Shown: positions 25,729 through 50,904, counted from the first letter of the stretch. The stretch: DNA of 64,000 nucleotides from Candidatus Micrarchaeota archaeon (GCA_014727975.1 WJMK01000017.1:3926-67925), one strand, 5' to 3'. Notes: generated from the letters alone by a model not told the origin. Numbers and translations: made by a program.

Positions 25729-25766
25729 AAAAAAGGATTAATAGGGGTGGGTTGGCTGACGGTAGG

Positions 25767-25782
25767 TGTAACCATGGTTACA
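25767..25782. promoter_or_regulatory. perfect 16-bp palindrome TGTAACCATGGTTACA (copy 1 of 4)
   Basis: Read directly from the sequence. Lies in the divergent intergenic region between the beta-CASP RNase (-) and acdB (+). Confidence 0.9.
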
Positions 25783-25829
25783 AAGAAGCCGTGCAAATCC
25801 CTCACAATTTAGGCAAAAACACCGGCGAC

Positions 25830-25839
25830 TTTAAATTTA
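25830..25839 (+). promoter_or_regulatory. TATA-like box for the acdB-acdA operon
   Basis: TTTAAATTTA is centred about 26 nt upstream of ATG 25860, which suggests a leaderless transcript. Confidence 0.5.
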
Positions 25840-25859
25840 TTGTAGGATTAAACTGGAGC

Positions 25860-26492
25860 ATGGCGAAAAAAGCCACGCTTCCGGAATTTGAAATGCTTGG
25901 GAAATACAAGATAAAGCCTCTTCCATATGGGATTGCAAAAACCGAGGAAGATGCACTGGAGATTGCAAAAAAGATAGGCTACCCTGTTGCCCTGAAGATC
26001 GTCTCCCCGGAAATAACCCACAAAACAGATGTGGGCGGGGTAAAGGTAAGGATAAAGGATGAAAAAAGGCTGAAGCATGCATATGAAGACATAATGGAGG
26101 GGGCAAAAAAGCACAAAATAACCGGGGTGCTGGTGCAGAAGATGGCAAGGAGGGGGGTGGAGCTGATTATAGGAGGGAAAAAAGACCCACAGTTCGGGCA
26201 CTTAGTGATACTCGGGATGGGAGGAGTATATGTGGAAATTTTCAGGGATGTCACCGCAAGAATCTGCCCGATTAACAAACAGGATGTAAAGGACATGATT
26301 AATGAGCTGGAGTCCCACCCCCTAATAACAGGAATACGGGGAATGAAGCCGATAAAGCTTGGTGCCCTTTACTCATTAATGGTCAAAACATCAAAGATGA
26401 TTGTAAATGAAGACATGGAGGAGCTGGACCTTAACCCGGTAATATTTGATGAAAAAGGGTATGACATTGTTGACGTGAGGTATGCAAAATGA
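25860..26492 (+). CDS. acdB: acetyl-CoA synthetase (ADP-forming), beta subunit (ATP-grasp)
   Basis: ATP-grasp pattern: GYPVALKIVSPEITHKTDVGGVKV...ELIIGGKKDPQFGHLVILGMGG...ELDLNPV. The ATG at 25860 is preferred. Confidence 0.85.
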   Translation: MAKKATLPEFEMLGKYKIKPLPYGIAKTEEDALEIAKKIGYPVALKIVSPEITHKTDVGGVKVRIKDEKRLKHAYEDIMEGAKKHKITGVLVQKMARRGVELIIGGKKDPQFGHLVILGMGGVYVEIFRDVTARICPINKQDVKDMINELESHPLITGIRGMKPIKLGALYSLMVKTSKMIVNEDMEELDLNPVIFDEKGYDIVDVRYAK

Positions 26493-27874
26493 GGGAGGGC
26501 CTTTCCAATCTTAAATATGTATTCGCCCCCAAGTCAATTGCAGTTATCGGGGCATCTGAAAACCCCTCAAAGCTCGGAAATGTAATATTGAAAAACCTGG
26601 TGGATGGCGGATATGAAGGGAAGATATACCCTGTGAATCCAAAATACCAGGAATTGCTTGGGATGAGGTGCTATCCAGACATAAAAAAGCTGAGGGGAAA
26701 GGTGGACCTTGCAATTTTTGCAATACCTGCCCCGCTCATACCAAAAGTTGCAGATGATTGCGGGAAAAATGGGGTAAAGGGGTTGATTGTCCTTTCCGCA
26801 GGTTTCGGGGAGGTGGGAAACAACAAGCTTGAGGAAAAGTTAGGGGCAACTGTCCAAAGGCATGGTATGGCCATGGTGGGGCCAAACTGCCTTGGGGTGC
26901 TGAATCCGGAAAAACGGGTGGACAGTATATTCTTTCCCTTCTTCAAATTCGGCAGGCCAAATGTGGGGGACATATCGATTATAACCCAGAGCGGGGCAGT
27001 GGGAACATGCATAGCGGACCTTGCTTCATATTACCGGGTAGGCTTTTCCAAATTTATTTCATATGGGAACGGCACGACAATAAATGACGCGGACCTTGTC
27101 GAATACCTGGGCGCCGACCCCAAAACAAAGCAAATCCTGCTCTATCTGGAGGGGACAAAGGATGGAAAAGGGCTCCTTAAAGCGCTGGAAAAAGTGAATA
27201 GGAAAAAGCCTGTCATAGTGCTGAAAGCAGGGAAAAGCAAGTCTGCAGGAGAAGCGGCAATGTCCCATACAGGGAACCTTGCAGGGAACTACCTGGCATA
27301 CCAGGCTGCGTTCAGGGAAAGCAGGGCAATAGAAGTTGATTCGGTTATAGAGCTTTTCCAGGTTGCAAACATATTCAGCCAGGCAATGCCAAAAGGAAAA
27401 AAGGTTGCGGTGCTTACGGACGGTGGTGGGTTGGGGGTCCTGGCTGCAGATGCGCTTGAAAAAGAAGACTTAGAGGTAGCAAAATTCAGCAGGGAAACCA
27501 CAAGGAAGCTTAAGAAAGTCCTGCCTTCATATGTGAATGCAGTAAATCCATTGGACATTGTTGCGGACTCCGGGACAGAAACGTATGAGAAAGCACTGAA
27601 GATACTGATGGAGGACAGAGAAATAGATTCTGTGATTGTAATTATATTGTTCCAGGCTCCCGCCGTGGATTCAAGAATAATAGATGTGCTGGTAAAGGAA
27701 TCAGACAGGAAAGTGAAGCCGATAGTTGTTGTCGCTGTTGGGGGGGAGTATACAAAAAACAATATGAAAGTGCTTGACAGTTACGGCATACCTACGTATG
27801 GATATCCTGATGCTGCAGTAAAAAGCCTGAAGAGGTTCACTGACTACTCACTTTTTCTTAAGGACAAGAAATAG
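26489..27874 (+). CDS. acdA: acetyl-CoA synthetase (ADP-forming), alpha subunit (CoA-binding/ligase-CoA domains)
   Basis: SIAVIGASENPSKLGN, YPVNP, GPNCLGV, SQSGAVG and a phosphohistidine-type motif MSHTGNLAG. The start overlaps the acdB stop. Confidence 0.9.
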   Translation: MREGLSNLKYVFAPKSIAVIGASENPSKLGNVILKNLVDGGYEGKIYPVNPKYQELLGMRCYPDIKKLRGKVDLAIFAIPAPLIPKVADDCGKNGVKGLIVLSAGFGEVGNNKLEEKLGATVQRHGMAMVGPNCLGVLNPEKRVDSIFFPFFKFGRPNVGDISIITQSGAVGTCIADLASYYRVGFSKFISYGNGTTINDADLVEYLGADPKTKQILLYLEGTKDGKGLLKALEKVNRKKPVIVLKAGKSKSAGEAAMSHTGNLAGNYLAYQAAFRESRAIEVDSVIELFQVANIFSQAMPKGKKVAVLTDGGGLGVLAADALEKEDLEVAKFSRETTRKLKKVLPSYVNAVNPLDIVADSGTETYEKALKILMEDREIDSVIVIILFQAPAVDSRIIDVLVKESDRKVKPIVVVAVGGEYTKNNMKVLDSYGIPTYGYPDAAVKSLKRFTDYSLFLKDKK

Positions 27875-28498
27875 GTGGTCCTTCTCGTAAGGCTCCAGGT
27901 TTATCTCTTCAACGAGCTCAAGCTCTTTTGAGAGTTCCTCTTTTACCTGTGTGTAGGTTTCTTCAGGTTTTTTTGTAACATCTATGCTCTGGGACTTGAT
28001 TGCAATCATTGCATGCCCCCCTTTTTTCAGGAACATGCGGGAGTTCTTTAGCAGGATGTCTGCCTGCTCGGGTGAAGCCACATCCTCATAGATAATATCG
28101 ACTTCACCTACTTCATGGTAGCTCTGGGGCTGGCGGGCATCGGCAAGAATGGGTATGATGTTGTCCCTTTTTTCACAAAGCCGCAAAAGGGTTTTCATGG
28201 AATGTGCAGAGACCTCAACCGCGTATATCCCACCATCAACAAGGATGTCAGAAAGATGGGAGGGAGTAGTGCCTGTTGAGGCGCCAAGATAAAGGATTGC
28301 GGAATTATATTTTATTGGGTTATTTCTGAGGCCGTTCTTTATTGCTGCGCAGAGCTTGCTCCTGTTGGGGTTCCATGCACGATATTCCTTCCCCCCAATC
28401 TGCATTAGATTCTCTCCATAGACCTGTGATCCTGGAGCCCTGTTTGGGGTGAGGATGCGGCCCTGGTGCTCAAAAACATTTTCAAAAATCTCTTTCAT
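27848..28498 (-). CDS. flpA: fibrillarin (rRNA/tRNA 2'-O-methyltransferase)
   Basis: YRAWNPNRSKLCAAI, ILYLGASTGTTPSHLSDI and DIIYEDVA motifs. Confidence 0.95.
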   Translation of the reverse strand: MKEIFENVFEHQGRILTPNRAPGSQVYGENLMQIGGKEYRAWNPNRSKLCAAIKNGLRNNPIKYNSAILYLGASTGTTPSHLSDILVDGGIYAVEVSAHSMKTLLRLCEKRDNIIPILADARQPQSYHEVGEVDIIYEDVASPEQADILLKNSRMFLKKGGHAMIAIKSQSIDVTKKPEETYTQVKEELSKELELVEEINLEPYEKDHLFLVLKKK

Positions 28499-28523
28499 GT
28501 GCTAAATTAAGAAAAGAAGGAAA

Positions 28524-29555
28524 TTAAAGGTGAGGCTTTCTGAATGCCTTCATGGGAAATAATTCTTCTGCCTTTTCTTCAGAGAGGAAATCCAGGGCAG
28601 TGCTGCAGACAGGGCATTTAAACCCAAAGTCTGTGGCTGAAACAAATTCATGGATGCTTGAGCCCCCGCAATTTGGGCAAAAATAGTATTCTCCGTTGCT
28701 GAAATCAAAATTCTTGCGCTCCTCCTCAATCTTGGAGTTGACCCATCCCTGCATTCTGCCTACATTAAGGCACCAGAAATAGGAAAACCAACCTGTCTCT
28801 GAATCCTTGTGGCGGGTGTAATCAACTATGCCCAGGGAATGGAGCTTATTCAGGGTTGCCCGGACATCACTGATTTTTATTTTCATCTTTTTTGAGATGT
28901 CTTCGTCGCTTGAATTGTTGGAAAAGCCGCGGACAATCTCCAGTGCATGTTCGCCTCCTGCCTCAATGATAAGGTGGCGGGCATAAGCGTCTGAAAGTAG
29001 CCTTGATATCTCTGCCCTGTTGAGCTCCTTTTGCGGAGAATCCCTGGGTTTTTTCTTTTCTTTTATTTTTGGTTTGGGCTTCCTGGCCAGTTTTGGGGCA
29101 GATGGCTTTGTTTTCTTGGTTGCCTTCCTGGCAGGCCTTTTGCTTGCCGCTGGTTTTTTCCTGGGTGTTTTCTTTTTCACTGTTTTGTTTTTGGTTGTTT
29201 TTTTCTTGGGGGATTTTCTGCTGGATGAATTCTTTTTCACCTGTTTCTTTTTCACGGTTTTTTTGCTTGTGGTTTTTTTAGCGGTTTTTCTTGTGGGTTT
29301 TTTCTTGGCTGGCTTCTTTTTCACGGTTTTTTTCTTGCAGGGTTTTCTGGACTTTTTGGTTTTCATGCTCTTCACTCTCTTCTTTGTCGTTTTCTTTGCC
29401 CTTTTTGCAACCGCTTTTCTTACTGCATTGCGCGCAGTGGATTTCTTGAGTTTTTTTGAGGCCTTTTTAGGTGCAGTTTTCTTTTTTGGGGATTTGTTTG
29501 CGGGGCGTTTTCTGGTCTTTTTTTGTGATTTTTTCTTCATTTGCTTCTTCGGCAT
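28524..29555 (-). CDS. tfe: transcription factor E (TFE alpha) with a Lys-rich N-terminal extension of about 170 aa
   Basis: The C-terminal ~170 aa comprise a winged helix (ISKKMKIKISDVRATLNKLHSLGIVDY...ETGWFSYFW) plus a Zn ribbon (CPNCG...CPVC). The N-terminal half is KKxxKK low complexity. Confidence 0.8.
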   Translation of the reverse strand: MPKKQMKKKSQKKTRKRPANKSPKKKTAPKKASKKLKKSTARNAVRKAVAKRAKKTTKKRVKSMKTKKSRKPCKKKTVKKKPAKKKPTRKTAKKTTSKKTVKKKQVKKNSSSRKSPKKKTTKNKTVKKKTPRKKPAASKRPARKATKKTKPSAPKLARKPKPKIKEKKKPRDSPQKELNRAEISRLLSDAYARHLIIEAGGEHALEIVRGFSNNSSDEDISKKMKIKISDVRATLNKLHSLGIVDYTRHKDSETGWFSYFWCLNVGRMQGWVNSKIEEERKNFDFSNGEYYFCPNCGGSSIHEFVSATDFGFKCPVCSTALDFLSEEKAEELFPMKAFRKPHL

Positions 29556-29716
29556 CAGGAACCACCATGAGGCAAGTGTATTTAGGGGCGCCCCACATAT
29601 TTAAATCTTTTTGAGGGCGGAAGGGGCAAAGGGTTTTATTTAGATATGGTGGGGCACCGGAAACCTGGCCTGAAAGATATTTTAAGCTGGAAAACCAAAT
29701 AATTACGGGAAAGACG

Positions 29717-30901
29717 ATGAAGCCGGACAACTACTGCGTAATATGCAAAGGCACCAAAAATATGTGTGGCCTGGGCTATTGCCCAATACTGAAAAAAATA
29801 AACCGGCAGTGCAAAATAAGCAAGGAGGTAAAGCAGGATGTTTTCGGGGCAACAAATGAAGCATTTGTGGGATCAGGCAACTATCCTGATGTTTCCTGGG
29901 GCCCGGTGCTCTCGCTTGAGGCACATAAAGACATGAGGGGGATATATGAAGAAGGATACGAAAAGGTCATTGAGTACCGGGCAGCTATGGTGAAGGGAAG
30001 AAGGTTTGGCGGGATACGCCCAAGCAGAAGAAGCGCTAGGGAAACGCAGGAAGCTGCGCTTTCAGTAAAGCCGGTAGACCTTGAAATAAACTTCTCAAGG
30101 AAGCCAAAGTATGATATGAGATTTTCTTCTGTTGTGCAGCCAACCGGGGCTTCGGCACCCATGCGCAGGGTAAGGGTATGCGACAACCCAAGGATACCAA
30201 AAAAAGTTGATTCGCTTATTGATGAAGGAAGAAAAGCAAGGGAGACTGCAGTGGAGCTTTATGAGCGGGGGCTTGGGAATTACTATATTACCAATGTGCT
30301 TTCAGTAGGGAAGCTTGGTGCGCTTGAGAACAGGATTATGGTTCCGACACGCTGGAGCATAACCGCAACTGATGATATGCTGGGGAAGCACCTTATGGAA
30401 AGGGTGCGGGAATACCCCAAATTAAACAAAGTCTGGCTATTCAGCCATGAATCTTTTTCGAATCACTACGAGATACTGGTTATTCCGGGCGCATGGGAAT
30501 TCGAGAATTTTGAGGCATGGTGCCCGAACACAGTCTGGAACATTGGGGGAAGCGTTGCCCGTGTAAGCGAAGAGTACGAGCCGTTCGGAGGGAGGAGCAA
30601 ATATGCGGCCACACAGGCAGGTGCATATTATGCAGTGAGGCTTGCGGTGCTGGAGTTCCTCGAGCGGATACGGCGGCAGGGGAGGGTTGTTGCAATACGG
30701 GAGGTTTATGAAGGGTACCAGGTCCCGGTTGGGGTTTTCCAGGTGAGGGAGAACGCAAGGGATGCAATGGAAAACCCAAAAATGTACTCAGGCGTAAAAG
30801 AGGCACTTGGGATAGCAGGGGAAAGGCTTAGGTTGCCTGTTTCTGAATACACAAAGCAGAGCAGGGTTATTGGGCAGAGAAACCTGCTTGAGTTTTTGTA
30901 A
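29717..30901 (+). CDS. nreA: NreA-family DNA repair protein with C-terminal PIP box
   Basis: N-terminal CVICKGTKNMCGLGYCP motif typical of the Nre N-domain. The C-terminus QRNLLEFL fits the PIP consensus Qxx[LIM]xx[FY][FYLM]. Confidence 0.75.
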   Translation: MKPDNYCVICKGTKNMCGLGYCPILKKINRQCKISKEVKQDVFGATNEAFVGSGNYPDVSWGPVLSLEAHKDMRGIYEEGYEKVIEYRAAMVKGRRFGGIRPSRRSARETQEAALSVKPVDLEINFSRKPKYDMRFSSVVQPTGASAPMRRVRVCDNPRIPKKVDSLIDEGRKARETAVELYERGLGNYYITNVLSVGKLGALENRIMVPTRWSITATDDMLGKHLMERVREYPKLNKVWLFSHESFSNHYEILVIPGAWEFENFEAWCPNTVWNIGGSVARVSEEYEPFGGRSKYAATQAGAYYAVRLAVLEFLERIRRQGRVVAIREVYEGYQVPVGVFQVRENARDAMENPKMYSGVKEALGIAGERLRLPVSEYTKQSRVIGQRNLLEFL

Positions 30902-30912
30902 CCATGGTTACA
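30897..30912. promoter_or_regulatory. perfect 16-bp palindrome TGTAACCATGGTTACA (copy 2 of 4)
   Basis: Overlaps the nreA stop codon. Lies about 40 bp upstream of the TATA-like ATTATAAATTT (30938-30950) that precedes purL. Confidence 0.9.
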
Positions 30913-30983
30913 TTGAACCCGCGCGTGCCCGCACGCAATATTATAAATTTAGGCGCAGAGTAACCGCAATATTGGTGGGATTG

Positions 30984-33899
30984 ATGCGAAGAATTGAAGT
31001 CAAGCCAAAGGGCAGCCTGCGTGAGCCTGCCAGCTATCCCCTTAAAAAAGAAATAGAAGGCCTCTTCAAAGTCGAAGTTGCAGATCTGATGATAACAAAG
31101 GCGTACACCATCGATGCTGATTTAAGCGATGAAGAAATGGAAAGGCTAGGCAAGGAGCTTTTTGCAGACCGAATTGCAGAAGAATACAGTTTTTCAGGGC
31201 CCTGCTACCCGGGCGCTTGGAGAATAGAAGTGGGGCTCCTTCCGGGCATGACCGACAATGTGGGCAAAACAGCGAAGAAAGCAGTTGCAGATATCCTGGG
31301 AAAGGACCAGGACGTATACTATTCCCGGGTTTACTACATAGATGCAGAGCTTGAGGATGAAGAAGCGCTTGATGAGCTGGCGGGGAAGCTGCTTGCAAAC
31401 AGGGTAATCGAACGCTGGAGGGTCTATCCCCCGAAAGACAGCACATTTGAGCCGTTCCCTGCAAAAGTAGAGCTTGGCCATTCTCCAGAAGTGGAAGAGA
31501 TAAACCTGGACATTGGGGATGATGCATTGGCCAAGATGAGCAAGGAAAGGCTTCTCGCCCTGTCCCTGGAAGAGATGAAAGGGATAAAGGAATACTACAA
31601 ACAGGGCACTGTGCAGGAGCAGCGGGAAAAGGTGGGGCTGGGCAGCCGCGCAACAGATGTGGAGCTTGAGGCCCTTGCTCAATCATGGAGCGAACACTGC
31701 AAGCACAAAATATTCAATGCAACAATTGAATATTCAGAGAACGGGGAGCTGGTGGAGGAAATAAATTCGATTTTCAAGACATACATACGCGGTGCAACAG
31801 AGAAGGCGATGAAGCCTTATGTAATTTCAGTTTTCAAGGACAATGGAGGGATAATAAAATTCAACCTGGACCACGATGTTGCAGTAAAGGTTGAGACCCA
31901 TAATGCTCCCTCAGCGCTTGACCCATATGGGGGGGCAATAACCGGAATCCTTGGAGTAAACCGCGATGTACTGGGCACAGGAATGGGCGCAAAGCCCGTG
32001 GCAAACATGGACATGCTCTGCTTTGGGCACCTGGATGAGAAAGACGTGCCTGAGGGGGTGATGCACCCAAAAAGAATTGCAGAGGGAGTAATCAAGGGGA
32101 TAAAGGACGGGGGGAACCCGGTGGGCATCCCCACTGTGAACGGGTCCATTGTTTTTGAAAAGTGCTATACTGCAAGGCCGCTTGTGTATGCAGGCACTGT
32201 GGGCATAATGCCCAACAAGGTAGAGGACCGGCCCACTGCAGAAAAAAAGATTGAGCCAGGATACCTGGCAGTGATGGTGGGGGGAAAGATAGGCAAAGAT
32301 GGCATACACGGTGCAACCTTCTCTTCCCAGGAGCTTACAACAGGCATAAGCTCAAGCGTTGTGCAGATTGGGGATGCTATAACCCAGAAGAAGGTAATCG
32401 ACTTTGTACTGGAAGCGCGCGACAAGATGCTTTTCGAAGCGATAACAGACAACGGTGCCGGAGGCCTTTCATCAAGCATAGGGGAGCTTGCGCAGCTCTC
32501 GGGCGGATGTGAGATATACCTTGACAGGTGCCCCCTGAAATACCCTGGCCTGGACCCCTGGGAAATCCTGCTTTCTGAGTCGCAGGAAAGGATGACCCTT
32601 GCAGTGCCTAAGGAAAGGTGGGGAGAGCTGGAAGGCCTTGCAAAAAAGCATGATGTTGAGGCCACTGTTGTTGGCACATTCACTGGCAGCGGCTATTTCC
32701 ATATTCTTTACAATGAGGAAACAGTAGGTTACCTGATGATGGAGTTCCTGCATGAGGGAATGGGGAAAATGAAGCTCAGGGCAAACTGGGAGAAGAAGAT
32801 TTATCCTGACCCAAACATAACAGACACCGACCCTAATGATTCCCTTATGAAACTGCTTGCCCAGCCAAATATTGCATCAAAAGAATGGGTCATCCGCCAG
32901 TATGACCATGAGGTGCAGGGGGGCAGTGTTGTGAAGCCAATAATGTGCAACAACAGCACTTCAGATGCGGCTGTGATCAGGCCTATACTTGACTGGGAAG
33001 AGGGCCTGGTGGTTAGCCACGGCATCTGCCCAAGGCAGGTCGAGGATTCTTACCACATGGCACAGCTAGCAGTGGATGAGGCAGTCAGGAACGCAATTGC
33101 AACAGGGGCAATGTTCGGCTACCTTGCATGCCTTGATAATTTCTCCTGGCCCGACCCAATCAAATCTGAGAAAACACCCGATGGGGAATATAAGCTTGCG
33201 CAGCTCGTCAGATGCGTGAAGGGGCTGCATGATGCTGCGGTGGCATATGGCTGCCCATTGATTTCAGGCAAAGACAGCATGAAAAATGAATATACTGTAG
33301 ACGGGCAGAAGTATGCAGTAAATCCCACTCTCCTGGTCACAGTAGTTGGGAAGATACAGGATGTGGAGGAGGCAGTCACAGTGAATTTCAAAGAGCCAGG
33401 GGACCTAGTCTATGTGCTTGGGAAAACAAAGGGGGCAATGGGAGGAAGCGAATACTTTAAGCTCTACGGAGGCATTGGAAACGGGATGCCGACTGTTGAC
33501 CTGCAGGCAAATATCGGCCTGTATTCTGCACTTTCAAAAGCAGCTGCTGCAGGACTTGTCAGCTCAGCGCACGATATCTCAGATGGGGGGCTGGCGGTCG
33601 CATTCGCAGAATGCACAATGGCCGGGCTGAGGGGGGCGGACCTTGACCTTGGATTATGCGAAGCTGAAACAGACGACCCGTATTGCCTCCTGTTTTCAGA
33701 AGACCCTGGCAGGTTCATTGTAACAGTAAGGGCTGAAAATGAGAAAAAATTCGAAAAAATAATGGCAGGGACCCCCTTCAGGAAGGCAGGCAGGGTGAGA
33801 GGCGACAGGAGGATGGTGATACGGCAGGGGGAGAAGGTCCTTGTGAATCAGGACGCATCAGATGTGAAGGCCGCGTGGAGAGGAGGGTTGAAATGGTAG
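30984..33899 (+). CDS. purL: FGAM synthase PurL with two N-terminal PurS-like domains (PurS-PurS-PurL fusion)
   Basis: PurL core motifs: WSEHCKHKIF, ETHNAPSALDPYGGA, AIRS-type domains. The N-terminal residues 1-70 and 78-148 each resemble PurS (…LGKELFADRIAEEY / …LAGKLLANRVIERW). The ATG at 30984 is preferred. Confidence 0.9.
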   Translation: MRRIEVKPKGSLREPASYPLKKEIEGLFKVEVADLMITKAYTIDADLSDEEMERLGKELFADRIAEEYSFSGPCYPGAWRIEVGLLPGMTDNVGKTAKKAVADILGKDQDVYYSRVYYIDAELEDEEALDELAGKLLANRVIERWRVYPPKDSTFEPFPAKVELGHSPEVEEINLDIGDDALAKMSKERLLALSLEEMKGIKEYYKQGTVQEQREKVGLGSRATDVELEALAQSWSEHCKHKIFNATIEYSENGELVEEINSIFKTYIRGATEKAMKPYVISVFKDNGGIIKFNLDHDVAVKVETHNAPSALDPYGGAITGILGVNRDVLGTGMGAKPVANMDMLCFGHLDEKDVPEGVMHPKRIAEGVIKGIKDGGNPVGIPTVNGSIVFEKCYTARPLVYAGTVGIMPNKVEDRPTAEKKIEPGYLAVMVGGKIGKDGIHGATFSSQELTTGISSSVVQIGDAITQKKVIDFVLEARDKMLFEAITDNGAGGLSSSIGELAQLSGGCEIYLDRCPLKYPGLDPWEILLSESQERMTLAVPKERWGELEGLAKKHDVEATVVGTFTGSGYFHILYNEETVGYLMMEFLHEGMGKMKLRANWEKKIYPDPNITDTDPNDSLMKLLAQPNIASKEWVIRQYDHEVQGGSVVKPIMCNNSTSDAAVIRPILDWEEGLVVSHGICPRQVEDSYHMAQLAVDEAVRNAIATGAMFGYLACLDNFSWPDPIKSEKTPDGEYKLAQLVRCVKGLHDAAVAYGCPLISGKDSMKNEYTVDGQKYAVNPTLLVTVVGKIQDVEEAVTVNFKEPGDLVYVLGKTKGAMGGSEYFKLYGGIGNGMPTVDLQANIGLYSALSKAAAAGLVSSAHDISDGGLAVAFAECTMAGLRGADLDLGLCEAETDDPYCLLFSEDPGRFIVTVRAENEKKFEKIMAGTPFRKAGRVRGDRRMVIRQGEKVLVNQDASDVKAAWRGGLKW

Positions 33900-34672
33900 G
33901 AAAAACAAATGCCCTTGTGCTCAATGGATATGGAATAAACTGCCCTGTTGAAACAGCATATGCAATAAAGGCGGTGGGCGGGAATGCTGAGATAAAGCAT
34001 GTCAGCGAGATCCTGGAAAGCCCTTTGCTGCTCGAAAACTACAATTTCCTTGTAATACCAGGGGGTTTTTCTTTTGGTGACGACATAGGCTCTGGCAAGG
34101 TGCTCTCCAACAAACTCAGGTATAAAACAGGTGGGAAGCTGCTTGATTTCATAAGCCAGGGAAAGCTCCTGATGGGTATCTGCAATGGGTTCCAGGTCCT
34201 GGTAAAGATGGGGCTGCTCCCAGAGCCTGATTTTGAGCAGAGGGTTACGATAACATATAACCAATCGGGAAAATTCGAAGACAGGTGGGTAAATCTGCTC
34301 GTAAACCAGAAGTCTCCCTGCATATTTACAAGGGAGCTGGCAGAAATAGACATGCCTGTTCGGCATGGAGAGGGAAGATTCATACCTGCGACAAAGGAAG
34401 TGCTTGATGAAATTACTAAAAGCGACCTGCATGTTATCCAGTACATAGATGACAAGGGCGGCCTTGGAAAATACCCCTGGAACCCCAATGGATCGGTCCT
34501 GAACATTGCGGGAATCTGCGACAAAAGCGGACAGGTCTTTGGAATGATGCCCCACCCGGAAGCCTACAACCACCGCACAAACCACCCCTGCTGGGCAGGG
34601 GGGACAGGGTCGACAGGAAGGGGGCTCTCCCTGTTCAGGAACGCGGTTTCATATATTGAGCAGGAATGGTGA
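33893..34672 (+). CDS. purQ: FGAM synthase glutaminase subunit PurQ
   Basis: Class I amidotransferase: GGFSFGD, GICNGFQVL, MMPHPE. The ATG overlaps the purL stop. Confidence 0.9.
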   Translation: MVGKTNALVLNGYGINCPVETAYAIKAVGGNAEIKHVSEILESPLLLENYNFLVIPGGFSFGDDIGSGKVLSNKLRYKTGGKLLDFISQGKLLMGICNGFQVLVKMGLLPEPDFEQRVTITYNQSGKFEDRWVNLLVNQKSPCIFTRELAEIDMPVRHGEGRFIPATKEVLDEITKSDLHVIQYIDDKGGLGKYPWNPNGSVLNIAGICDKSGQVFGMMPHPEAYNHRTNHPCWAGGTGSTGRGLSLFRNAVSYIEQEW

Positions 34673-34678
34673 GGGCGG

Positions 34679-37202: not shown

Positions 37203-37243
37203 GGGCAACGCAAAAAATTAAATAATGAACGAGAAATTATATT

Positions 37244-40200: not shown

Positions 40201-40924
40201 CGCAATAGAAGAAGTTGAGCAGAAAAACAGCCAGTTTTCAGGGAGCCTTGATTTTGAAGATGGTGTGAGGGCGTTTTATGCATTAGGCCTTGCAGAGAGT
40301 GCACTTGAGAAATTAGGGGAAGAGCAGGATAGCTCGGATGCAGAAAACAAGGCACTGTTGGAAAGCGAACTGGAAGATGGATATGATTTGCTGGAAGAAT
40401 ACAGCCGGGAATATGAAGAAGCGGATGGTACGCATCTGGAAGGGCTCTTCATGAAAAAGCCAAGTGAGATAAGCAAGTCGTTCAAGGAGGCTTCCTCTTC
40501 AGAGGATTATGATGGTGCTATCTCCGGAATAACTGAGCTTGAAGAGGAGATGGAAGGGACCATGGAGCTGCTTAAAAAAGAAGCTGAAAGAACAGGGGAG
40601 AATGTAGAAGCACTATATTCAGAAGTAAAGGATGAGATGAAAGAAGCAGATGCGGCTTTTGTTGAGGCATCGATCCAGAATGCAGAAAACTATTATTCCA
40701 ATGGTGAATATGTGCGTGCAATAAAAAGCCTGGAAGATGGAATCAGGAGGCTTCAGAGCTTCGAACGGAAGCAGGAAGGCCTGCTTGTGCTTGCAATAAC
40801 CGGGCTGCTGGTCCTGGGGATAATTGCCCTTTACCTGCTCAGGGACCAGATACCAAAAGACCTGCTTCCAAAAAAGGAGGAGAAGAAATACAAAAAACTG
40901 AAACGGGAGCCGCCTAGCCCATGA
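37244..40924 (+). CDS. giant (1226 aa) very acidic surface protein: signal peptide, coiled-coil regions, C-terminal TM anchor
   Basis: Signal MKARFLILLVLVAASSINA. Very E/D-rich. C-terminus LLVLAITGLLVLGIIALYLL followed by a basic tail. Confidence 0.6.
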   Translation: MKARFLILLVLVAASSINAASESYPRPWENETWVDENPYAHCFFGIMFLDISGSLVADEDKLIESSLNQSIPDFQESLDTIRLGEIHSELAVGGKTNNNIDRAIEAKDNADEIRLGVEDIVPLKYSWDVWSYPGYWGDCIDYSLLALEGYAAEINQKRGEFESWRGKLQYAGVCDEDYAGQSIEYCNMPLEDAKCVASGIWEDVPDFEWYYGCMHEHWETIDSLDSRLNGVMLAYNETVDMCEDGREEAENRKAEADSKFSEIEGEELGSIYRSSYGEGNSGALGVRGTYERLVETKDAADAEYSKAEKADEGDSKWLKDCIVGSGNAISGYELVLQSSILEEADSVVEEYGEGAWERLEEANTIENKMGGLGKDRLATARAECTAGDGAGTLGQRFVHYGKCTKYANMAIESAEEGEGALEAYISAELSWLDGFLSKAEEDFIDTHIERAQEALLEQGMPADFLEVVENIEESILAKAEHKYGYLEEKRAALKADILLGGQQFGYLNSWFEVGEECYSGNVLDYSCALGQLNEMGSLYLEIEGELLAQKDLLVESSLVVDEEERLEIPKLDDPSEAYLYVDITNPTKFSGEDVVVEIPTSFEFRKLDLVSGSDYVRMVTPSRNKIEIYLTTIGPEETIHLQFKKEHVVCRSKSYEEEAFGDSEGGATVSKTLKIDCEQEVGGIILGEGFEADEVYVNGLRAEMEEGCLPSVFAEGAHTIEMESYEIDAYDVERELAFASTLGQTTNIELFFNFEPKKDLEYIAYSSVEEGKDLDDLDVFGYTGEKITEKKTMGESTIFFKVHDLVEGKEAKVRVSYEISDLEDYLNEQILYYSGQNLTEEEEVLLTQAKNYLLADENTGAYQAIEELRGKTEKRKKAEGKVAQKHEKICEKIEEKIAKLSAAVSLAEELGISNNIIREMVSRLSELEDALGTEVESGALVGPLESFDMNWEKRELTKISKELLKLEKDVKEQWSETGMEDEAVGDAIEEVEQKNSQFSGSLDFEDGVRAFYALGLAESALEKLGEEQDSSDAENKALLESELEDGYDLLEEYSREYEEADGTHLEGLFMKKPSEISKSFKEASSSEDYDGAISGITELEEEMEGTMELLKKEAERTGENVEALYSEVKDEMKEADAAFVEASIQNAENYYSNGEYVRAIKSLEDGIRRLQSFERKQEGLLVLAITGLLVLGIIALYLLRDQIPKDLLPKKEEKKYKKLKREPPSP

Positions 40925-42440
40925 ATTGCATAATTGTGTTCTGGCCTCTTGTTTTCTTCTTTTTTGCGGAAAGGGGCTTTCCTGCCCTGAATTTTTCCTG
41001 GAAAGAAAGCAGGACTTCTTTCATCTTTTTTTCGCGTTTTTTTGAGGCCCAATAATAATGCTCATCCCGGGTTGATTTTGTCATTAGGACATATACTGCG
41101 CCTTCCCTGAGCCTTCCTGCCCGCCCCCTTCTCTGGATAGAGCGTATTTCGCTGGGAATGGGCTCGTAAAATATTACTGCGTCCACCTCAGGGATGTCCA
41201 GGCCCTCCTCCCCAATGGAGCTTGCTACAAGGACATCAAATTCCCCTTTCCTGAAGGAGTCCATGGTCTGCTCCTGTATCTTCCTTGTAAATCTTTCCCG
41301 TTTGCCCATAAAGGGCCTGGCTTTTACCCCTTGCTTTTCAAACTCAGAAACAATCTGGGTAATCTGGTCCCGGTATTGCACAAACACTATCAGCTTCCTG
41401 CCCCTAAGCCCAGAAACAAGTGAAAGGAGCTTTTTCATTTTTGGGTGGTCATCGCTAGATGCCAGGAGCGAAAGTATCTTTTGTACTTCCTGGCTTGAGC
41501 TCACTGTTTTGGCTGATTTCGAGTCAGCTTTTGAGAGTTTTTCCAGGTATTTATAAACAGGGGCCTTCCCCTGTGTTTCAAGAAGCTCCTGTAGGTGAAG
41601 GGCATGCAAAAGGCAGGTGTACAGGTAAATAAGGCGATACTTCATAGGGTGCTTTATCTTAAGAATTTTCGGCCTAAGAGCAAGGAAGGCGCGTTTTGAG
41701 ATTATCTGCGGGCGGACCCCCATGTTCCGGAGCAGGGTAACCTGTTTTTTTATATACCTTGAAAGTATTTCCTTTGCTTCGCCATACTCCTTTCCGAGCT
41801 CAACAGGAATCCATGTATAATCCATTTTTTTCATATATGGGCTGACATCAGGGTCTGTTGGGGACCTCACTTCAATATTGGTTATCCTCAGATTTGTAAG
41901 GACCTCCTTTATTTTTGCACGGTCCCCTCCTGGTGAAGCAGTAAGTGCAATTATCTTGGCTTCGGGAGGAATGTGCTCAGCGATCTGCACATAGGCATAG
42001 TCCCCTACTGCCCGGTGCGCTTCATCAAAAACAACAAGGGAAACTTCTTCTCCAGGAAAGATGCCTTTTTGGATATCGTTTCTTATTGTCTGTGGGGTTG
42101 AAGAAATTATTTTGTTTTGATACAATTCTGCGCGTTTTTTTGGAGGGGATTCGCCAGTAACCAAAACCGAGCCTCCGTCTATATTGCCCAAAACATCCAA
42201 TATTGTCTGGGTGTGCTGGCGGGCCAGTGGCTTTGTTGGGGTGAGGAAGATGCATTTGCCAGTGGCCTTTTCCATAAGGCTGAGGGCAATAAGTGTTTTT
42301 CCCAACCCAGTTGGAAGCACTACCAATGTGTTTCCGTTGGCTTGTATGGAGTTAATTATCTGCTCTTGGTATTCCCGTGGTTGGAGATTCATCGTTTTTG
42401 AATATACTTCAGACGATTTAAAAGAGTGAGGGGGGTACAT
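40914..42440 (-). CDS. hef: Hef/FANCM-type SF2 helicase (helicase module only, no ERCC4 nuclease domain), C-terminal PIP-like box
   Basis: REYQEQII...LVVLPTGLGKTLIA, VVFDEAHRAVGDYAY, LTASPG, and helicase C motifs (VASSIGEEGLDIPEVD, QRRGRAGR). The C-terminus is ...KKKKTRGQNTIMQFMG. The start is uncertain (42440 or 42392). The ATG at 42497 lies inside the palindrome and is rejected. Confidence 0.85.
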   Translation of the reverse strand: MYPPHSFKSSEVYSKTMNLQPREYQEQIINSIQANGNTLVVLPTGLGKTLIALSLMEKATGKCIFLTPTKPLARQHTQTILDVLGNIDGGSVLVTGESPPKKRAELYQNKIISSTPQTIRNDIQKGIFPGEEVSLVVFDEAHRAVGDYAYVQIAEHIPPEAKIIALTASPGGDRAKIKEVLTNLRITNIEVRSPTDPDVSPYMKKMDYTWIPVELGKEYGEAKEILSRYIKKQVTLLRNMGVRPQIISKRAFLALRPKILKIKHPMKYRLIYLYTCLLHALHLQELLETQGKAPVYKYLEKLSKADSKSAKTVSSSQEVQKILSLLASSDDHPKMKKLLSLVSGLRGRKLIVFVQYRDQITQIVSEFEKQGVKARPFMGKRERFTRKIQEQTMDSFRKGEFDVLVASSIGEEGLDIPEVDAVIFYEPIPSEIRSIQRRGRAGRLREGAVYVLMTKSTRDEHYYWASKKREKKMKEVLLSFQEKFRAGKPLSAKKKKTRGQNTIMQFMG

Positions 42441-42488
42441 TTCCACTATTCTGCCTTTGTTTCCATAAATGTTATAATTAAAAATATA

Positions 42489-42504
42489 TGTAACCATGGT
42501 TACA
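42489..42504. promoter_or_regulatory. perfect 16-bp palindrome TGTAACCATGGTTACA (copy 3 of 4)
   Basis: Lies in the divergent intergenic region between hef (-) and the 77-aa ORF (+). It flanks an AT-rich TATA-like stretch at 42460-42488. Confidence 0.9.
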
Positions 42505-42508
42505 TAGT

Positions 42509-42742
42509 ATGTTAGTATATTTATACGACCTTAAATCATCTGTTAAGGATTACAACCGCCTAAAAAGAAACTTCTATTACCATCTAAACAAAAATGGATA
42601 CAACCAATATTTCTGGAAAACAAAATCTGTTCTTGTTGCACCTGATGAGATGGAACGCGCACTTGATGGGTTCTTCAAGGATTTCAATAAGTTTGTAGTT
42701 GCTTATAAAATCCATACAGATTCAATAGAAGAGATGGAATAG
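42509..42742 (+). CDS. small AT-rich ORF (77 aa) with a Cas2/VapD-like secondary-structure pattern
   Basis: MLVYLYDL... The residue pattern is compatible with a beta-alpha-beta-beta-alpha-beta ferredoxin-like fold, with Asp after strand 1. It is markedly more AT-rich than its neighbours. No CRISPR or cas genes are nearby. Confidence 0.4.
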   Translation: MLVYLYDLKSSVKDYNRLKRNFYYHLNKNGYNQYFWKTKSVLVAPDEMERALDGFFKDFNKFVVAYKIHTDSIEEME

Positions 42743-42770
42743 TGGAAATGAGAGGCCTCTTCCCATTTCC

Positions 42771-44330
42771 TCAAATCAACTTACTCACATCTATCTCACA
42801 GACCGCAACAGCATGCCCAAGGCCAAATTTTTCCAAGGTTTCCGGATGCACAGAACCAATTATACCAATATCTTCTTTCCCAATGGAGATTTTTGCGCAC
42901 CTTCCTTTTATGAAGCATTTGTCCTCAGCTTCCTTAAGCCTGAATTTCTTTCCCACTTCTTTTATTAGCGTCTGTAGATAGGGCTGGAGAGTTGTGACAG
43001 AGGCACCTTCACCCATAATTCCAAAACAGAGTCTCTCTTCTTCTTTTTTAGTATAAACAGTTCCAATTTCATAAAAAAGCTGGGGGAGCCCCTTCATTTT
43101 GTTTGTTGAGAAGCAACCCATAATGCCAGGAAGAAGACTTGTCCTGAGGAAGGTAAATTCTTCTGAAGCGGAGTTTTTTATACCCAGAGCACCTCTTCCC
43201 CTTCCCACCGCGTTCAATTTTTCCATGTTTGTAAGGAAATAATTTTTTGTTTCCAAAAAACCCATCCCAGTCAAAGCATCATGAAACTGCTCTTCGCTCT
43301 CATCCCCCCCACCAACAGTTGAAATGCTTGGAAGGCTCGGCTCTAGGTTTTCATAGCCATAGCCAATTGCGATTTCTTCTATAATATCAGTAAATGAGAT
43401 AATGTCTGTGCGGTAAGGAGGGACCAGCACTTTCCCCTGTTCTGTGCCCATACCCATTTTTCCCAGTGCGTCGGATGCCTCCTTTTCACTGAGCCCAAGG
43501 CCAAGCACGCGGTTTGCCTCATTTAACTCCATCTTTACCCTGGCTGGGGAGAAATCTGGAAACGTTTTGCACCCAACTTTAACAGCATAGACTCTTCCTC
43601 CCCTGTCTGCAAGTGCAGTTGCAATTATATTAACGGTTTTTTCTACAGTTTCCTGGGAGGTTCCGGTTGATTCAACCAGCACTTCCTTTGTTTTGCTTGT
43701 TACGCGTGTCCTCTCCCCATTTATGATTGGGGGGAACGAGAAAATGCCTTCTTCATCAGATATCAGTACCGCGCCCTTTTCCACAAGGTGGGCGAATGCC
43801 CTTCCTTTCGGGTGCTTTTCCAGGATTTCTGCAACATCCATCTCTCCTTCCATGTCTAAGGGGGAAAACTTTTCTCCATGTGAGACGAAATACCTCATTC
43901 TGCCCTTTATTTTTGAAAGATCATGGATGCCTACTGCGACCTTTTTCCTCTTTCTCCCAATTGTATCATGCAGCTTTTCCTGCATCTGCATCAGGTCAAC
44001 AAGAAAGTCCTCATCAACATCAAGCCCCTTCACAACAGCTGCACAGACCGCGGGCCTGATTTTGGATGTCTCTTTTTCAACTTCCATCACATAGTTTGAA
44101 GGGGCAGCCTTGTATGGAGGCAGCACGTCCCCATAATATGCCTTTACTGCGCGCACAATGCCCTCAATGCAAAACAAGTCCGGCCGGTTTGGGGTAACCT
44201 CCACAACAAGCCCACCTTCTTCCCCTGGTTCTACAGGCATCCCGAGATTGGTAAGACATTCAATTATTTTTTTCTCATTGTGGCCACTAAGCTTTTCCAG
44301 CTTTTTGAAATCAACATTTATGACTGCCAT
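42771..44330 (-). CDS. pheT: phenylalanine--tRNA ligase beta subunit (archaeal type)
   Basis: The N-terminus has a B3/4-like domain (EVTPNRPDLFCIEGIVRAVKAY). The C-terminus has a B5 domain and a class II-like core. Length 519 aa. Confidence 0.95.
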   Translation of the reverse strand: MAVINVDFKKLEKLSGHNEKKIIECLTNLGMPVEPGEEGGLVVEVTPNRPDLFCIEGIVRAVKAYYGDVLPPYKAAPSNYVMEVEKETSKIRPAVCAAVVKGLDVDEDFLVDLMQMQEKLHDTIGRKRKKVAVGIHDLSKIKGRMRYFVSHGEKFSPLDMEGEMDVAEILEKHPKGRAFAHLVEKGAVLISDEEGIFSFPPIINGERTRVTSKTKEVLVESTGTSQETVEKTVNIIATALADRGGRVYAVKVGCKTFPDFSPARVKMELNEANRVLGLGLSEKEASDALGKMGMGTEQGKVLVPPYRTDIISFTDIIEEIAIGYGYENLEPSLPSISTVGGGDESEEQFHDALTGMGFLETKNYFLTNMEKLNAVGRGRGALGIKNSASEEFTFLRTSLLPGIMGCFSTNKMKGLPQLFYEIGTVYTKKEEERLCFGIMGEGASVTTLQPYLQTLIKEVGKKFRLKEAEDKCFIKGRCAKISIGKEDIGIIGSVHPETLEKFGLGHAVAVCEIDVSKLI

Positions 44331-45702
44331 TCCTGTTCCTCCGTTCTTTTGCTTCCTTTGCAGCTGCAGGGGTAAGGTATTCCCCAGTTACGCATGCAAA
44401 GCAGCTTTTTTCTCCAACAACTTTCTTCAACCCGCCAAGGCTTATATAGTGGAGGCTGTCTACCCCCAAGTATTTTTCTATCTCCCCGACACTCTTGTTG
44501 TTTGCAATAAGCTCCTCGAATGTTGGCATGTCCACTCCATAGAAGCAAGGGGACATTATAGGTGGGCAGGTTATCCTCAGGTGTATCTCCTTTGGTTTGC
44601 ATGCGCGCAGCATGCTAATCACTTCTTTTATTGTTGTTCCGCGCACAATGCTGTCATCGAACACAACTATGCGTTTTCCCTCTATTACTTTCTTTATCGG
44701 GTTTATCTTCATCCTGACTGCTCTTATCCGGCTTTCCTGGTCTGGCATGATAAACGTCCTGCCCACATACCGGTTTTTGATTATCCCTTCAGTATATTCT
44801 ATTCCTGTTGCCTGGGCAAAACCAAGTGCAGCGCTTCTTGCTGTATCAGGCACAGGAATGACCAGGTCCGCTTCCACAGCGGACTCTTCCGCAAGCTGCC
44901 TCCCAAGCTCTTTCCTCACATGCTCCACAAGCCTGCCATTTATTATGGAGTCCGGCCGTGAAAAATAAACATACTCAAACATGCAATGCCTTGCCCCCTT
45001 GTCAAGGAGAGCACCATCCTTTCTTTCCCCATTTTCATCTATGATTATAAGCTCCCCCGGCCCAACAGAGCCGCCATAGGGAACACCATTCATGTCAAGG
45101 CTTGTAGATTCTGAGCAGAAGACAAAGTTCCCTTCATTTTCCCCATACACGAGAGGGCGGATGCCGTGCGGGTCACGGAAGACAAACAGTTTCCGGTCAT
45201 AAATCCCAACAACAGAATATGCTCCATCAAGCTTTTCCATCGCGCTGAGCACCGCTTCTTTTATTGAGGCCCCTTCCCTCAGCCTTTCAGTAAGCAGGTA
45301 TAAGATTACTTCAGAATCAACAGTTCCCTCAAACACATATTTCTTTTCTTCGAGCTCTTTCCTGAGTTCCCAGTAATTTGCGATATGTCCATTATGGGCA
45401 ACTGCAAGGCTTCCGGAAACTGAAGGCTGGACATCTTTTATTGTTGCAGTTGCGGTAGTAGGGTAGCGGGTATGTGCAATGCCTGCCCAGTGCGGCTGGG
45501 ACAGGTCCACATCCCCAATGACTTCAGAAACAAGCCCCATCCCCTTCTTTTTGTAAAACGAGCCATCATAGAGGACCATGCCCGCGGCATCCTGTCCCCT
45601 GTGCTGGACCCCGACCATCCCCCTGTAAACAAGCGGCGCCACGGGCTTCTTGTTTTTTGAGATTACGGCCACTACACCGCACTCTTCCCTTTTTTCATCC
45701 AT
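44311..45702 (-). CDS. purF: amidophosphoribosyltransferase
   Basis: N-terminal nucleophile CGVVAV, then VQHRGQDAAG and the PRTase motif VVFDDSIVRGTT. C-terminal Cys residues are consistent with an Fe-S type enzyme. Confidence 0.95.
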   Translation of the reverse strand: MDEKREECGVVAVISKNKKPVAPLVYRGMVGVQHRGQDAAGMVLYDGSFYKKKGMGLVSEVIGDVDLSQPHWAGIAHTRYPTTATATIKDVQPSVSGSLAVAHNGHIANYWELRKELEEKKYVFEGTVDSEVILYLLTERLREGASIKEAVLSAMEKLDGAYSVVGIYDRKLFVFRDPHGIRPLVYGENEGNFVFCSESTSLDMNGVPYGGSVGPGELIIIDENGERKDGALLDKGARHCMFEYVYFSRPDSIINGRLVEHVRKELGRQLAEESAVEADLVIPVPDTARSAALGFAQATGIEYTEGIIKNRYVGRTFIMPDQESRIRAVRMKINPIKKVIEGKRIVVFDDSIVRGTTIKEVISMLRACKPKEIHLRITCPPIMSPCFYGVDMPTFEELIANNKSVGEIEKYLGVDSLHYISLGGLKKVVGEKSCFACVTGEYLTPAAAKEAKERRNRNGSHKC

Positions 45703-45758
45703 TAGCCCACCAGAATATCCTTTTTAGGATATAAGAGTTTTATAATGCTTATAGGTCG

Positions 45759-45774
45759 TGTAACCATGGTTACA
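45759..45774. promoter_or_regulatory. perfect 16-bp palindrome TGTAACCATGGTTACA (copy 4 of 4)
   Basis: Lies upstream of purF-pheT (-), next to the TATA-like TTTTATAAT / GATATAAG (45727-45748). It is 8 nt downstream of the NFACT-R gene stop. Confidence 0.9.
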
Positions 45775-50750: not shown

Positions 50751-50903
50751 ATGCCCCCAAAGCCCAAAAAAAAGGAAGTTTACCATTTCTCCATTGTGAA
50801 GAATTTCCCAAAATACAAATCATTTGAAATACTGAAGGAGCCGGAAGCGGATTTTCTTTCTGCCTTTGTCAGGACTCTTTCACAATTATTTAAGGGTGAT
50901 TGA
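50751..50903 (+). CDS. possible small protein (50 aa), not in the ORF track
   Basis: Hand translation gives MPPKPKKKEVYHFSIVKNFPKYKSFEILKEPEADFLSAFVRTLSQLFKGD. It exactly fills the gap between the module and purD (4 nt and 1 nt spacers). There is no homology evidence. Confidence 0.25.
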   Translation: MPPKPKKKEVYHFSIVKNFPKYKSFEILKEPEADFLSAFVRTLSQLFKGD

Positions 50904-50904
50904 A

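Follow-up and report, generated by a model that had tools for sequence, protein, structure and literature searches.

A 16-bp palindrome in Micrarchaeota promoters is a probable operator, with a 77-residue Cas2/VapD-like protein as its candidate binder

How do Micrarchaeota, DPANN archaea that are uncultivated or grow only in co-culture, control their genes? To our knowledge, essentially nothing is known about gene regulation in these organisms. A 64,000-nt stretch from Candidatus Micrarchaeota archaeon (GCA_014727975.1, WJMK01000017.1:3926-67925), which we call the window, gives a point of entry, as it contains four exact copies of a perfect 16-bp palindrome, TGTAACCATGGTTACA. An earlier reading of this sequence (the original prediction) had proposed that the palindrome acts at the DNA level as the operator of a regulon. 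What, then, is the palindrome, which genes does it serve and what reads it? Our answer, to which we give a probability of roughly 0.6, is that it is an operator for a two-fold symmetric DNA-binding protein, with a 77-residue protein encoded next to one of the copies as the leading candidate. Comparison across genomes makes it very probable that the 16-mer is a protein-binding promoter element; that the 77-residue Cas2/VapD-like protein is what binds it is a possibility that we put forward more tentatively.

Within the window, all copies of the palindrome fall within 20 kb, and no further site is found at up to three mismatches. Dinucleotide-preserving shuffles of the window yield a mean of 0.17 matches, compared with the four observed, and none of 100 shuffles reaches four, bearing out the predicted excess over chance. 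The 300-bp surroundings of the copies cannot be aligned with one another, the 16-mer alone being common to all four, which shows that the palindrome in the window is not part of a longer repeat. Its half-sites are not enriched in the intergenic DNA of the window. The gene context found with Pfam (beta-CASP/acdBA, Nre/purL-purQ, Hef/77-residue open reading frame (ORF) and NFACT-R/purF-pheT) agrees with the one given earlier. With refined gene starts for beta-CASP (25713), acdB (25860), purS/L (30984) and the Hef-like helicase (42392), the copies and the genes next to them are as follows.

24466..25713, minus strand: beta-CASP metallo-beta-lactamase nuclease, downstream of copy 1 (Pfam)
25767-25782: palindrome copy 1, between the divergent beta-CASP nuclease (minus) and acdB-acdA (plus) genes (Pfam context)
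25860..27874, plus strand: acdB-acdA, subunits of ADP-forming acetyl-CoA synthetase, divergent from the beta-CASP gene (Pfam)
30897-30912: palindrome copy 2, overlapping the Nre stop codon TAA (30899-30901) and preceding purS/L-purQ
30984..34672, plus strand: fused purS/purL gene and then purQ, downstream of copy 2 (Pfam)
40914..42392, minus strand: Hef-like DEAD/ResIII helicase, the divergent partner of the 77-residue ORF in the clade with the exact motif (Pfam)
42489-42504: palindrome copy 3, between a TATA box (42476-42488) and the start of the 77-residue ORF (42509)
42509..42742, plus strand: 77-residue ORF with a Cas2/VapD-like fold, candidate autoregulated binder of the palindrome
42771..45702, minus strand: purF-pheT operon, downstream of copy 4 (Pfam)
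45759-45774: palindrome copy 4, 7 bp past the NFACT-R stop codon, with the purF start (45702, minus strand) 56 bp downstream of the copy

The TATA boxes and transcription starts given here are inferred from sequence. Copy 1 lies about 22 bp upstream of a TATA-like ATTAAT of the beta-CASP gene (25737-25742); on its other side, the acdB TATA box (25830-25839) follows 47 bp downstream. Copy 2 precedes the purS/L TATA box (30940-30951) by 27 bp, with the purS/L ATG at 30984, and the edge of copy 4 is 13 or 24 bp from the purF TATA box, depending on which of two TATA-like candidates is taken (45738-45747 or 45727-45737). Copy 3 is about 64 bp upstream of the TATA box of the Hef-like helicase (42417-42423). 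For the 77-residue ORF on its other side, however, the order is the reverse of that at the other targets, with the TATA box first, then the palindrome, and the ATG 4 bp further on, and copy 3 therefore overlaps the expected transcription start of this gene. As the original prediction had also recorded, purD (50866-52200) has no copy, and the ATG within the CCATGG core of the motif creates spurious starts for mechanically called ORFs (40914..42497 and 25752..26492 are examples), which has the practical consequence that start codons are called wrongly in this clade.

The palindrome extends well beyond this window. A scan for the exact 16-mer in one genome per species (185,579 genomes, 596 Gb) found it in at least 117 genome stretches. 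Among the matches listed, 69 come from Micrarchaeota, Micrarchaeia or Anstonellales-type metagenome-assembled genomes (MAGs), obtained in many studies and with GC contents of 41-60%. The remaining 48 are isolated occurrences in unrelated bacteria, approximately the chance level for a 16-mer in 596 Gb. Several Micrarchaeota MAGs give between four and nine stretches each, which puts the copy number at a low value of at least 4-9 per MAG. Judged by this distribution, the motif is a feature of a clade and not of one genome. We then analysed 68 of the Micrarchaeota-type stretches together with the window (550 kb in all; one stretch, L078, was left out as a probable chance match; labels of this kind denote individual stretches or loci throughout). 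They hold 80 exact copies, three with one mismatch and none with two, and sites with three or four mismatches occur at the level of chance. Each stretch had been selected for one exact copy, and the additional copies within the stretches are free of this bias; here too exact copies prevail, with about 11 against three that carry one mismatch. The base flanking each end of the palindrome is A or T in 92% of cases, a weak preference.

These copies avoid genes. Only 13 of the 80 overlap a crude ORF call, where 87% would be expected to do so (P ~3e-47), and most of the 13 overlap ORFs that have been falsely lengthened by the ATG of the motif; a single exact copy, L021:6870, clearly falls within a long gene, an ORF of 819 aa, at a distance of 1.3 kb from the start. 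The copies also hold their positions at orthologous promoters in MAGs of 41-60% GC while the flanks diverge. Thus, the motif is found at the orthologous position in L052 (Nre-purL) and L092 (helicase/77-residue ORF), both about 73% identical to the window at the nucleotide level. The purL site is conserved in the window, L052, L003 and L113; that of purF is conserved in the window, L016, L111, L119 and L154, and is present with one mismatch in L156 and L159. L036 has the same divergent beta-CASP/acdB-acdA pair with the motif, and its geometry on the beta-CASP side is as in the window. Furthermore, the gene upstream of purF varies, being NFACT-R in the window and Nre in L016 and L111. As the downstream pur gene is constant while the upstream gene changes, the copies found at gene 3' ends belong to pur promoters and are not terminators. 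As a side observation, PurS in the window is fused N-terminally to PurL in a single ORF (30984-33899), in which about 80 residues precede the PurS domain; L052 has the matching long PurS/PurL form, of 971 aa.

When the copies are oriented to the nearest gene start, a regular spacing emerges. At about 20 sites the edge of the motif is 36-38 bp from the predicted ATG, and at most of these a TTTAAA-type box starts 9-10 bp past the motif, with the ATG some 21-22 bp beyond the box, an arrangement that on sequence grounds is the layout of leaderless archaeal promoters. Three purP/beta-CASP sites fall in the same class with a predicted ATG that is probably false, and there the TATA box is about 22 bp from the motif. 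In L102, a single palindrome serves genes 37 bp away on both sides. Measured by gene family from the centre of the motif to the centre of the TATA box, the distance is 19-21 bp in nine families and 30-34 bp in six, the rest being scattered beyond. Both clusters would place the motif directly upstream of the B recognition element (BRE), about two or three helical turns from the TATA box. At homologues of the 77-residue ORF, an AT-rich, TATA-like stretch precedes the palindrome almost everywhere.

Several claims that the original prediction had drawn from four sites thus carry over to the clade. The placement is intergenic (67 of the 80 copies lie outside crude ORF calls), and the random scatter that it had named as grounds for refutation, reaching into genes in the manner of miniature inverted-repeat transposable elements (MITEs), is not what the stretches show. 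The comparison of orthologous regions for which it had called finds the motif kept at the purL, purF and 77-residue ORF promoters of relatives. Its preference for a role in DNA over an RNA hairpin agrees with the constancy of the downstream pur gene, and its placement of the site upstream of the TATA box at four transcription units agrees with the two spacing clusters. The repressor-like position at the 77-residue ORF, between TATA box and start, recurs in homologous loci. All of this supports the DNA-level operator, read by a dimeric factor, that had been proposed.

Which genes does this operator serve? According to Pfam, the genes downstream of the motif include purine and pyrimidine genes (purE, purN, purP, purF, purS/L-purQ and carB), genes of DNA and RNA metabolism (DNA ligase, the primase large subunit PriL, the Hef-like helicase, the beta-CASP nuclease, a KaiC/RadA-like ATPase and Pop5), and a further set made up of TBP, proteasome alpha, the His- and Thr-tRNA synthetases, acdBA, a Fic protein and several unknowns. 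Purine synthesis appears to be the clearest theme, with five separate transcription units in addition to carB, which agrees with the earlier hint of nucleotide-metabolism control. The purF-pheT gene order recurs in L154-L160, across lineages in which purF is only about 55% identical. A genomic survey of Micrarchaeota from 2025 treats purine biosynthesis, though not its regulation, and counts de novo purine synthesis among the traits that separate the less host-dependent orders from the others (PMC12892359); control of this pathway therefore bears on nucleotide supply in these cells.

The 77-residue gene stands apart from the other targets. We fetched 36 metagenome loci (172 kb) through the protein alone, independently of the motif, and of the approximately 31 loci with intact upstream DNA, 29 carry TGTWWC-N4-GWWACA 0-79 bp upstream of the start, against a chance expectation of about 0.3 occurrences over the whole 172 kb. 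The palindrome likewise lies upstream of every homologue found in the genome loci or in loci anchored on purF. Among homologues of at least 55% identity, 10 of 11 show the exact motif of the window and the remaining one has C7 changed to T, and homologues of 38-54% identity (GC 26-56%) carry the variants TGTAACTATAGTTACA, TGTATCTATAGATACA, TGTAACCATAGTTACA, TGTATCTATGGTTACA and a few others. The variants differ only at positions 5/12 and 7/10 and slightly at 4 and 8, and they may be repeated within one contig in a lineage-specific form (twice in L140, three times in L153). The Hef-like helicase is the divergent neighbour only in the clade with the exact motif; in distant lineages the neighbours are acdA, acetyl-CoA synthetase, ThiI, a histidine kinase or an unknown gene. 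That the neighbours change while the small gene stays together with a palindrome over its own start is the pattern characteristic of a DNA-binding protein under negative autoregulation. This coupling of motif and ORF across deep lineages had not been foreseen in the original prediction. Across Micrarchaeota lineages, the 77-residue ORF is also usually found a few genes away from purF-pheT.

What kind of protein is it? It begins MLVYLYDLKSSVKDYNRLKRNFYYHL, its N-terminal half is strongly basic, and it belongs to a narrow family, with 19 clusters in a word-indexed search and 71 representatives at 50% identity in an exhaustive hidden Markov model search of 1.84 billion proteins (homologue sets P0001-P0019 and P0140-P0209). 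It has no match to a Pfam, NCBIfam or PADLOC family, Cas2 included; a profile search of the PDB gave no significant match and no Cas2, and a viral fold library gave nothing significant. One distant member of the family scores against Pfam Cas2 with E = 0.026, which falls short of the cut-off for that family. The AlphaFold2 model (pLDDT 95) predicts a beta-alpha-beta-alpha-beta topology, for which the top Foldseek matches are Cas2 and VapD; these are weak (E 4.5e-3 to 0.1, TM-score 0.4-0.6), and the model has three strands versus four to five in the Cas2/VapD fold. Invariant residues are Y6-D7 at the end of strand 1, N16, K19 and R20 in helix 1, and K39-S40, with D7 occupying the position of the catalytic Asp of Cas2 and VapD. 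The neighbours of the homologues in other loci are housekeeping genes, and the window contains neither cas1 nor a CRISPR array, array-like tandem repeats and domains of cas proteins or antitoxins being equally absent from it. The predicted fold would cut both ways: it is a nuclease fold, yet also a small, dimer-forming module, and in Cas1-Cas2 complexes the Cas2 dimer lays duplex DNA across its two-fold axis. Members of the family are almost always standalone proteins of 75-100 aa; a few have N-terminal extensions, among them those in L107 (130 aa, lysine-rich), P0153 (197 aa) and P0166 (177 aa).

From the occurrence, conservation, position and gene content described above, we infer that a protein binds the palindrome, which protein this is and with what sign it regulates. 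The palindrome would act at the DNA level within archaeal core promoters, as an upstream activating or repressing site. At purE, purN, carB, DNA ligase, purF, purSL and beta-CASP it would sit directly upstream of the BRE and TATA box, at about 20 or 32 bp from centre to centre, and a factor bound there could help or hinder the recruitment of TBP and TFB. A factor bound between the TATA box and the start of the 77-residue ORF would block RNA polymerase, resulting in negative autoregulation. The most likely binder would be the 77-residue protein itself, which is favoured because its gene and the palindrome form the only unit conserved in all lineages; a small protein with a Cas2/VapD-like fold and a basic N-terminal half, it is presumably dimeric. 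In this scheme, the ancestral role would be autoregulation of the 77-residue gene, and one large Micrarchaeota clade would later have recruited the site to purine and some DNA-metabolism promoters. Our proposal in full, a Cas2/VapD-fold dimer that always represses its own promoter and in one clade also regulates purine and some DNA-metabolism genes, is a tentative one.

A number of points weigh against the operator and its proposed binder. Sites as near to invariant as these (80 exact copies, three with one mismatch and none with two in 550 kb) are unusual for a transcription factor. Five copies lie between convergent genes where neither a promoter nor a tRNA is evident (L007:6206, L019:6934, L047:7466, L084:6383 and L095:4432); no promoter model accounts for them, and they may point to small genes missing from the annotation or to a second function of the palindrome. 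A formal test on 13 variants found no more palindrome symmetry than in shuffles, and asymmetric variants are common; this speaks against a strict base-pairing requirement and does not identify the reader. Nor was there clean covariation between residues and site, residue 17 (R/K) failing to track the AAC versus ATC half-site. The similarity to Cas2 and VapD is weak, the modelled fold is one known for nucleases and not for transcription factors, and the invariant Y-D motif suggests nuclease chemistry.

Regulon membership, moreover, is labile. We assessed purF and DNA ligase on loci fetched through the protein and not the motif. At purF, L154 has the exact motif 50 bp upstream and L159 and L156 have one-mismatch versions (TGTAACCATAGTTACA and TGTAACTATGGTTACA), and four distant purF loci (L155, L157, L158 and L160) have no palindrome at purF. 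The four DNA-ligase loci obtained in this way (87 kb) are without any palindrome of the family, from which it follows that the association with DNA ligase is confined to one sub-lineage, and DNA ligase was rejected as a general member of the regulon. On this comparison, the pur regulon is real in a large clade and evolutionarily labile; that everything beyond the 77-residue ORF is clade-specific and labile was a second point unforeseen in the original prediction.

A second conserved element, which the operator model leaves unexplained, brackets the 77-residue ORF. In the window it is a perfect 14-nt inverted repeat, the arms of which are 285 nt apart and enclose both the palindrome and the ORF:

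42438..42451: left arm, CATTTCCACTATTC, perfect 14 nt
42737..42750: right arm, GAATAGTGGAAATG, overlapping the stop codon of the 77-residue ORF

Most of the 32 homologous loci compared, distant lineages included, have TAGTGGAA between +231 and +272 relative to the ORF start, and about 20 of them have TTCCACTA between -61 and -102. This TTCCACTA/TAGTGGAA inverted repeat is specific to the locus of the 77-residue ORF, and was seen in the window, L075, L092, L118-L129, L134, L138, L140, L143, L147, L152, L153 and L155. We take its core, AGTGGAAA, which is flanked by a C-rich string, to recall the core of the archaeal origin recognition box (ORB).

The serious rival is a conventional transcription factor (winged helix-turn-helix, TrmB, Lrp or similar) encoded elsewhere, of which the 77-residue gene would be the best-conserved target, for instance a nuclease or toxin that needs tight repression. 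The evidence from promoter position and regulon applies to such a factor equally, and the Cas2/VapD fold and the invariant Y-D motif, which point to a nuclease and not a transcription factor, count in its favour. So does the palindrome itself, since half-sites whose centres are spaced by about 10 bp within a 16-bp palindrome are a classic mark of helix-turn-helix dimers. Against this, no DNA-binding gene is consistently adjacent: the neighbours of the ORF change across lineages while the palindrome stays, and distant lineages often show the palindrome at the 77-residue ORF only, which is the pattern of a self-contained autoregulator. Conventional transcription factor genes beside the copies were isolated cases, namely a TrmB-like gene in L080, which adjoins a missed cas2-like ORF, and a winged-helix-like 94-aa ORF in L062, and neither recurs. 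On balance, we consider a conventional factor the less likely of the two and favour an operator read by the 77-residue protein.

Could the palindrome instead be a selfish repeat of the REP (repetitive extragenic palindrome) or MITE type, spread by the Cas2-like protein as a domesticated nuclease, as in REP/RAYT systems, and have no regulatory role? A single-copy gene of small nuclease fold, itself bracketed by inverted repeats, is tied to a dispersed intergenic palindrome, and the copies are nearly identical, as such an origin would have it. The copies, however, lack flanking homology, terminal repeats and target duplications, are few in each MAG, and are kept at orthologous promoters across a wide range of GC content with fixed spacing to TATA box and ATG, upstream of pur genes that appear to be functionally coherent. 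A selfish repeat is therefore very improbable.

A site for chromosome organisation or replication (parS-like, or an origin element), or a target of restriction or methylation, is just as hard to sustain. The TGT...ACA palindrome is 16 bp long and conserved across a phylum, as parS is, the four window copies lie within 20 kb, and the ORB-like core AGTGGAAA is nearby. But on the 1.03-Mb contig JBAZFC010000001.1 the copies are spread at 224-624 kb, over at least 400 kb, and they are phased with promoters; among the window genes scanned, none shows a ParB domain, and neither ParB nor Orc1 is encoded beside the copies. As for restriction, CCATGG is not avoided (24 observed versus 27 expected). A replication origin at the Hef/ORF locus was set aside, as there is no adjacent Orc1, the flanking string is C-rich and not G-rich, and genes converge on the locus. 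Least credible of all is a hairpin acting in RNA, as terminator, processing site or stability element, for although the element is palindromic, some variants keep the symmetry and several copies are found just past stop codons or between convergent genes, the predicted stem has little stability (-4.4 to -6.8 kcal/mol; z-scores of -0.6 to -1.6) and lacks a T-run, most copies, being upstream of the TATA box, would not be transcribed from the adjacent promoter, asymmetric variants are common with covariation not above shuffles, and no Rfam family other than tRNAs was matched.

Several further observations concern the surroundings of the palindrome and the window as a whole. In five MAGs, a non-coding block of about 75 nt, conserved at the nucleotide level (AGTTGTGTCTTTTCCTCAACTTTTGTTCAA...CAGACGTTAAATTGAATTCTTTTAAAACC), directly adjoins the palindrome; it possibly represents a small RNA gene or else a promoter, has no Rfam match, and in four of the five adjoins a tRNA-Ala/Trp/Ala cluster.

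L011:6797-6880: ~75-nt block
L040:2560-2640: ~75-nt block
L041:1995-2075: ~75-nt block
L099:1156-1236: ~75-nt block
L093:2825-2899 (reverse): ~75-nt block

In the window, 28524-29555 (minus strand) encodes a TFE-alpha-like protein of 343 aa, with around 190 extra N-terminal residues before the TFIIE-alpha/winged-helix region; this extra part holds an imperfect 14-nt tandem repeat (29260-29307), and the L154 counterpart has only 264 aa. Three very large ORFs (7697-11659, 37244-40924 and 54327-59240; 1320, 1226 and 1637 aa) show no Pfam domain, or at most faint HEAT repeats, and the gene for the 1226-aa protein is conserved beside the Hef-like helicase in L154, L156 and L159. Finally, a 100-nt tRNA match (11713-11812, Rfam RF00005) exceeds the standard tRNA length and probably contains an intron.

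As an element, the palindrome is of an ordinary type, a palindromic operator with an autoregulated partner; what is unusual is its near-invariance, its conservation on the scale of a phylum and a candidate regulator with a fold not known from transcription factors. Its 14-mer core appears in no paper of the searchable literature, in which we also found none on Micrarchaeota promoters or regulons. The palindrome offers a concrete cis-element for the study of regulation in Micrarchaeota, a 16-mer that hardly varies, occupies a defined place in promoters and has a small set of targets, and the candidate binder, at 77 aa, is small enough to be synthesised and checked directly. If the proposal is correct, this would be the first regulon defined in DPANN archaea, and the protein would represent a new family of DNA-binding regulators derived from a fold of nucleases and CRISPR adaptation, a case of a nuclease fold reused for regulation.

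Among known systems, the PurR regulon may be the closest functional analogue. In E. coli, the pur operator of PurR, a member of the LacI family, is the 16-bp palindrome ACGCAAACGTTTGCGT (PMC3159470). Both elements are 16-bp palindromes at many purine units as well as at carbamoyl-phosphate synthase, and both imply a dimeric reader. The sequences, however, are unrelated. The Micrarchaeota element belongs to archaeal TATA/BRE promoters, with most sites upstream of the TATA box and not over the core promoter; no LacI-type gene was seen here, the candidate regulator being a 77-residue single-domain protein, and the regulon extends to further genes, among them those for the Hef-like helicase and the beta-CASP nuclease.

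With regard to archaeal regulators, Ptr2, TFB-RF1 and EarA bind just upstream of the BRE and TATA box, and the repressors MDR1, LrpA and Phr bind between the TATA box and the transcription start. The motif occupies both kinds of position, the activator-type one with its centre some 20 bp before that of the TATA box, and the repressor-type one between TATA box and start. Those regulators are helix-turn-helix, winged helix-turn-helix or Lrp proteins with degenerate sites, whereas here the site is near-invariant and no such protein is linked to it. Neither they nor PurR resemble the present case in sequence or in kind of protein.

The 77-residue protein resembles Cas2 and VapD, its best, if weak, structural matches, in size and in the invariant Asp that ends strand 1. 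It differs from them in lacking a match at family threshold and one strand of the topology, in the absence from the window of cas1, a CRISPR array and an antitoxin partner, and in being tied to a palindrome in its own promoter (29 of the ~31 protein-fetched loci). CIRCE/HrcA and parS/ParB likewise involve long inverted repeats that stay near-identical over large evolutionary distances, in a few to tens of copies per genome. CIRCE, however, is restricted to chaperone operons and parS clusters near the origin, often inside genes, while the sites described here are dispersed and phased with promoters. REP/RAYT systems also combine dispersed intergenic palindromes with one small nuclease-fold gene bracketed by inverted repeats; the Micrarchaeota palindrome, by contrast, has no extended repeat unit, is low in copy number, and keeps both its syntenic positions and its promoter spacing.

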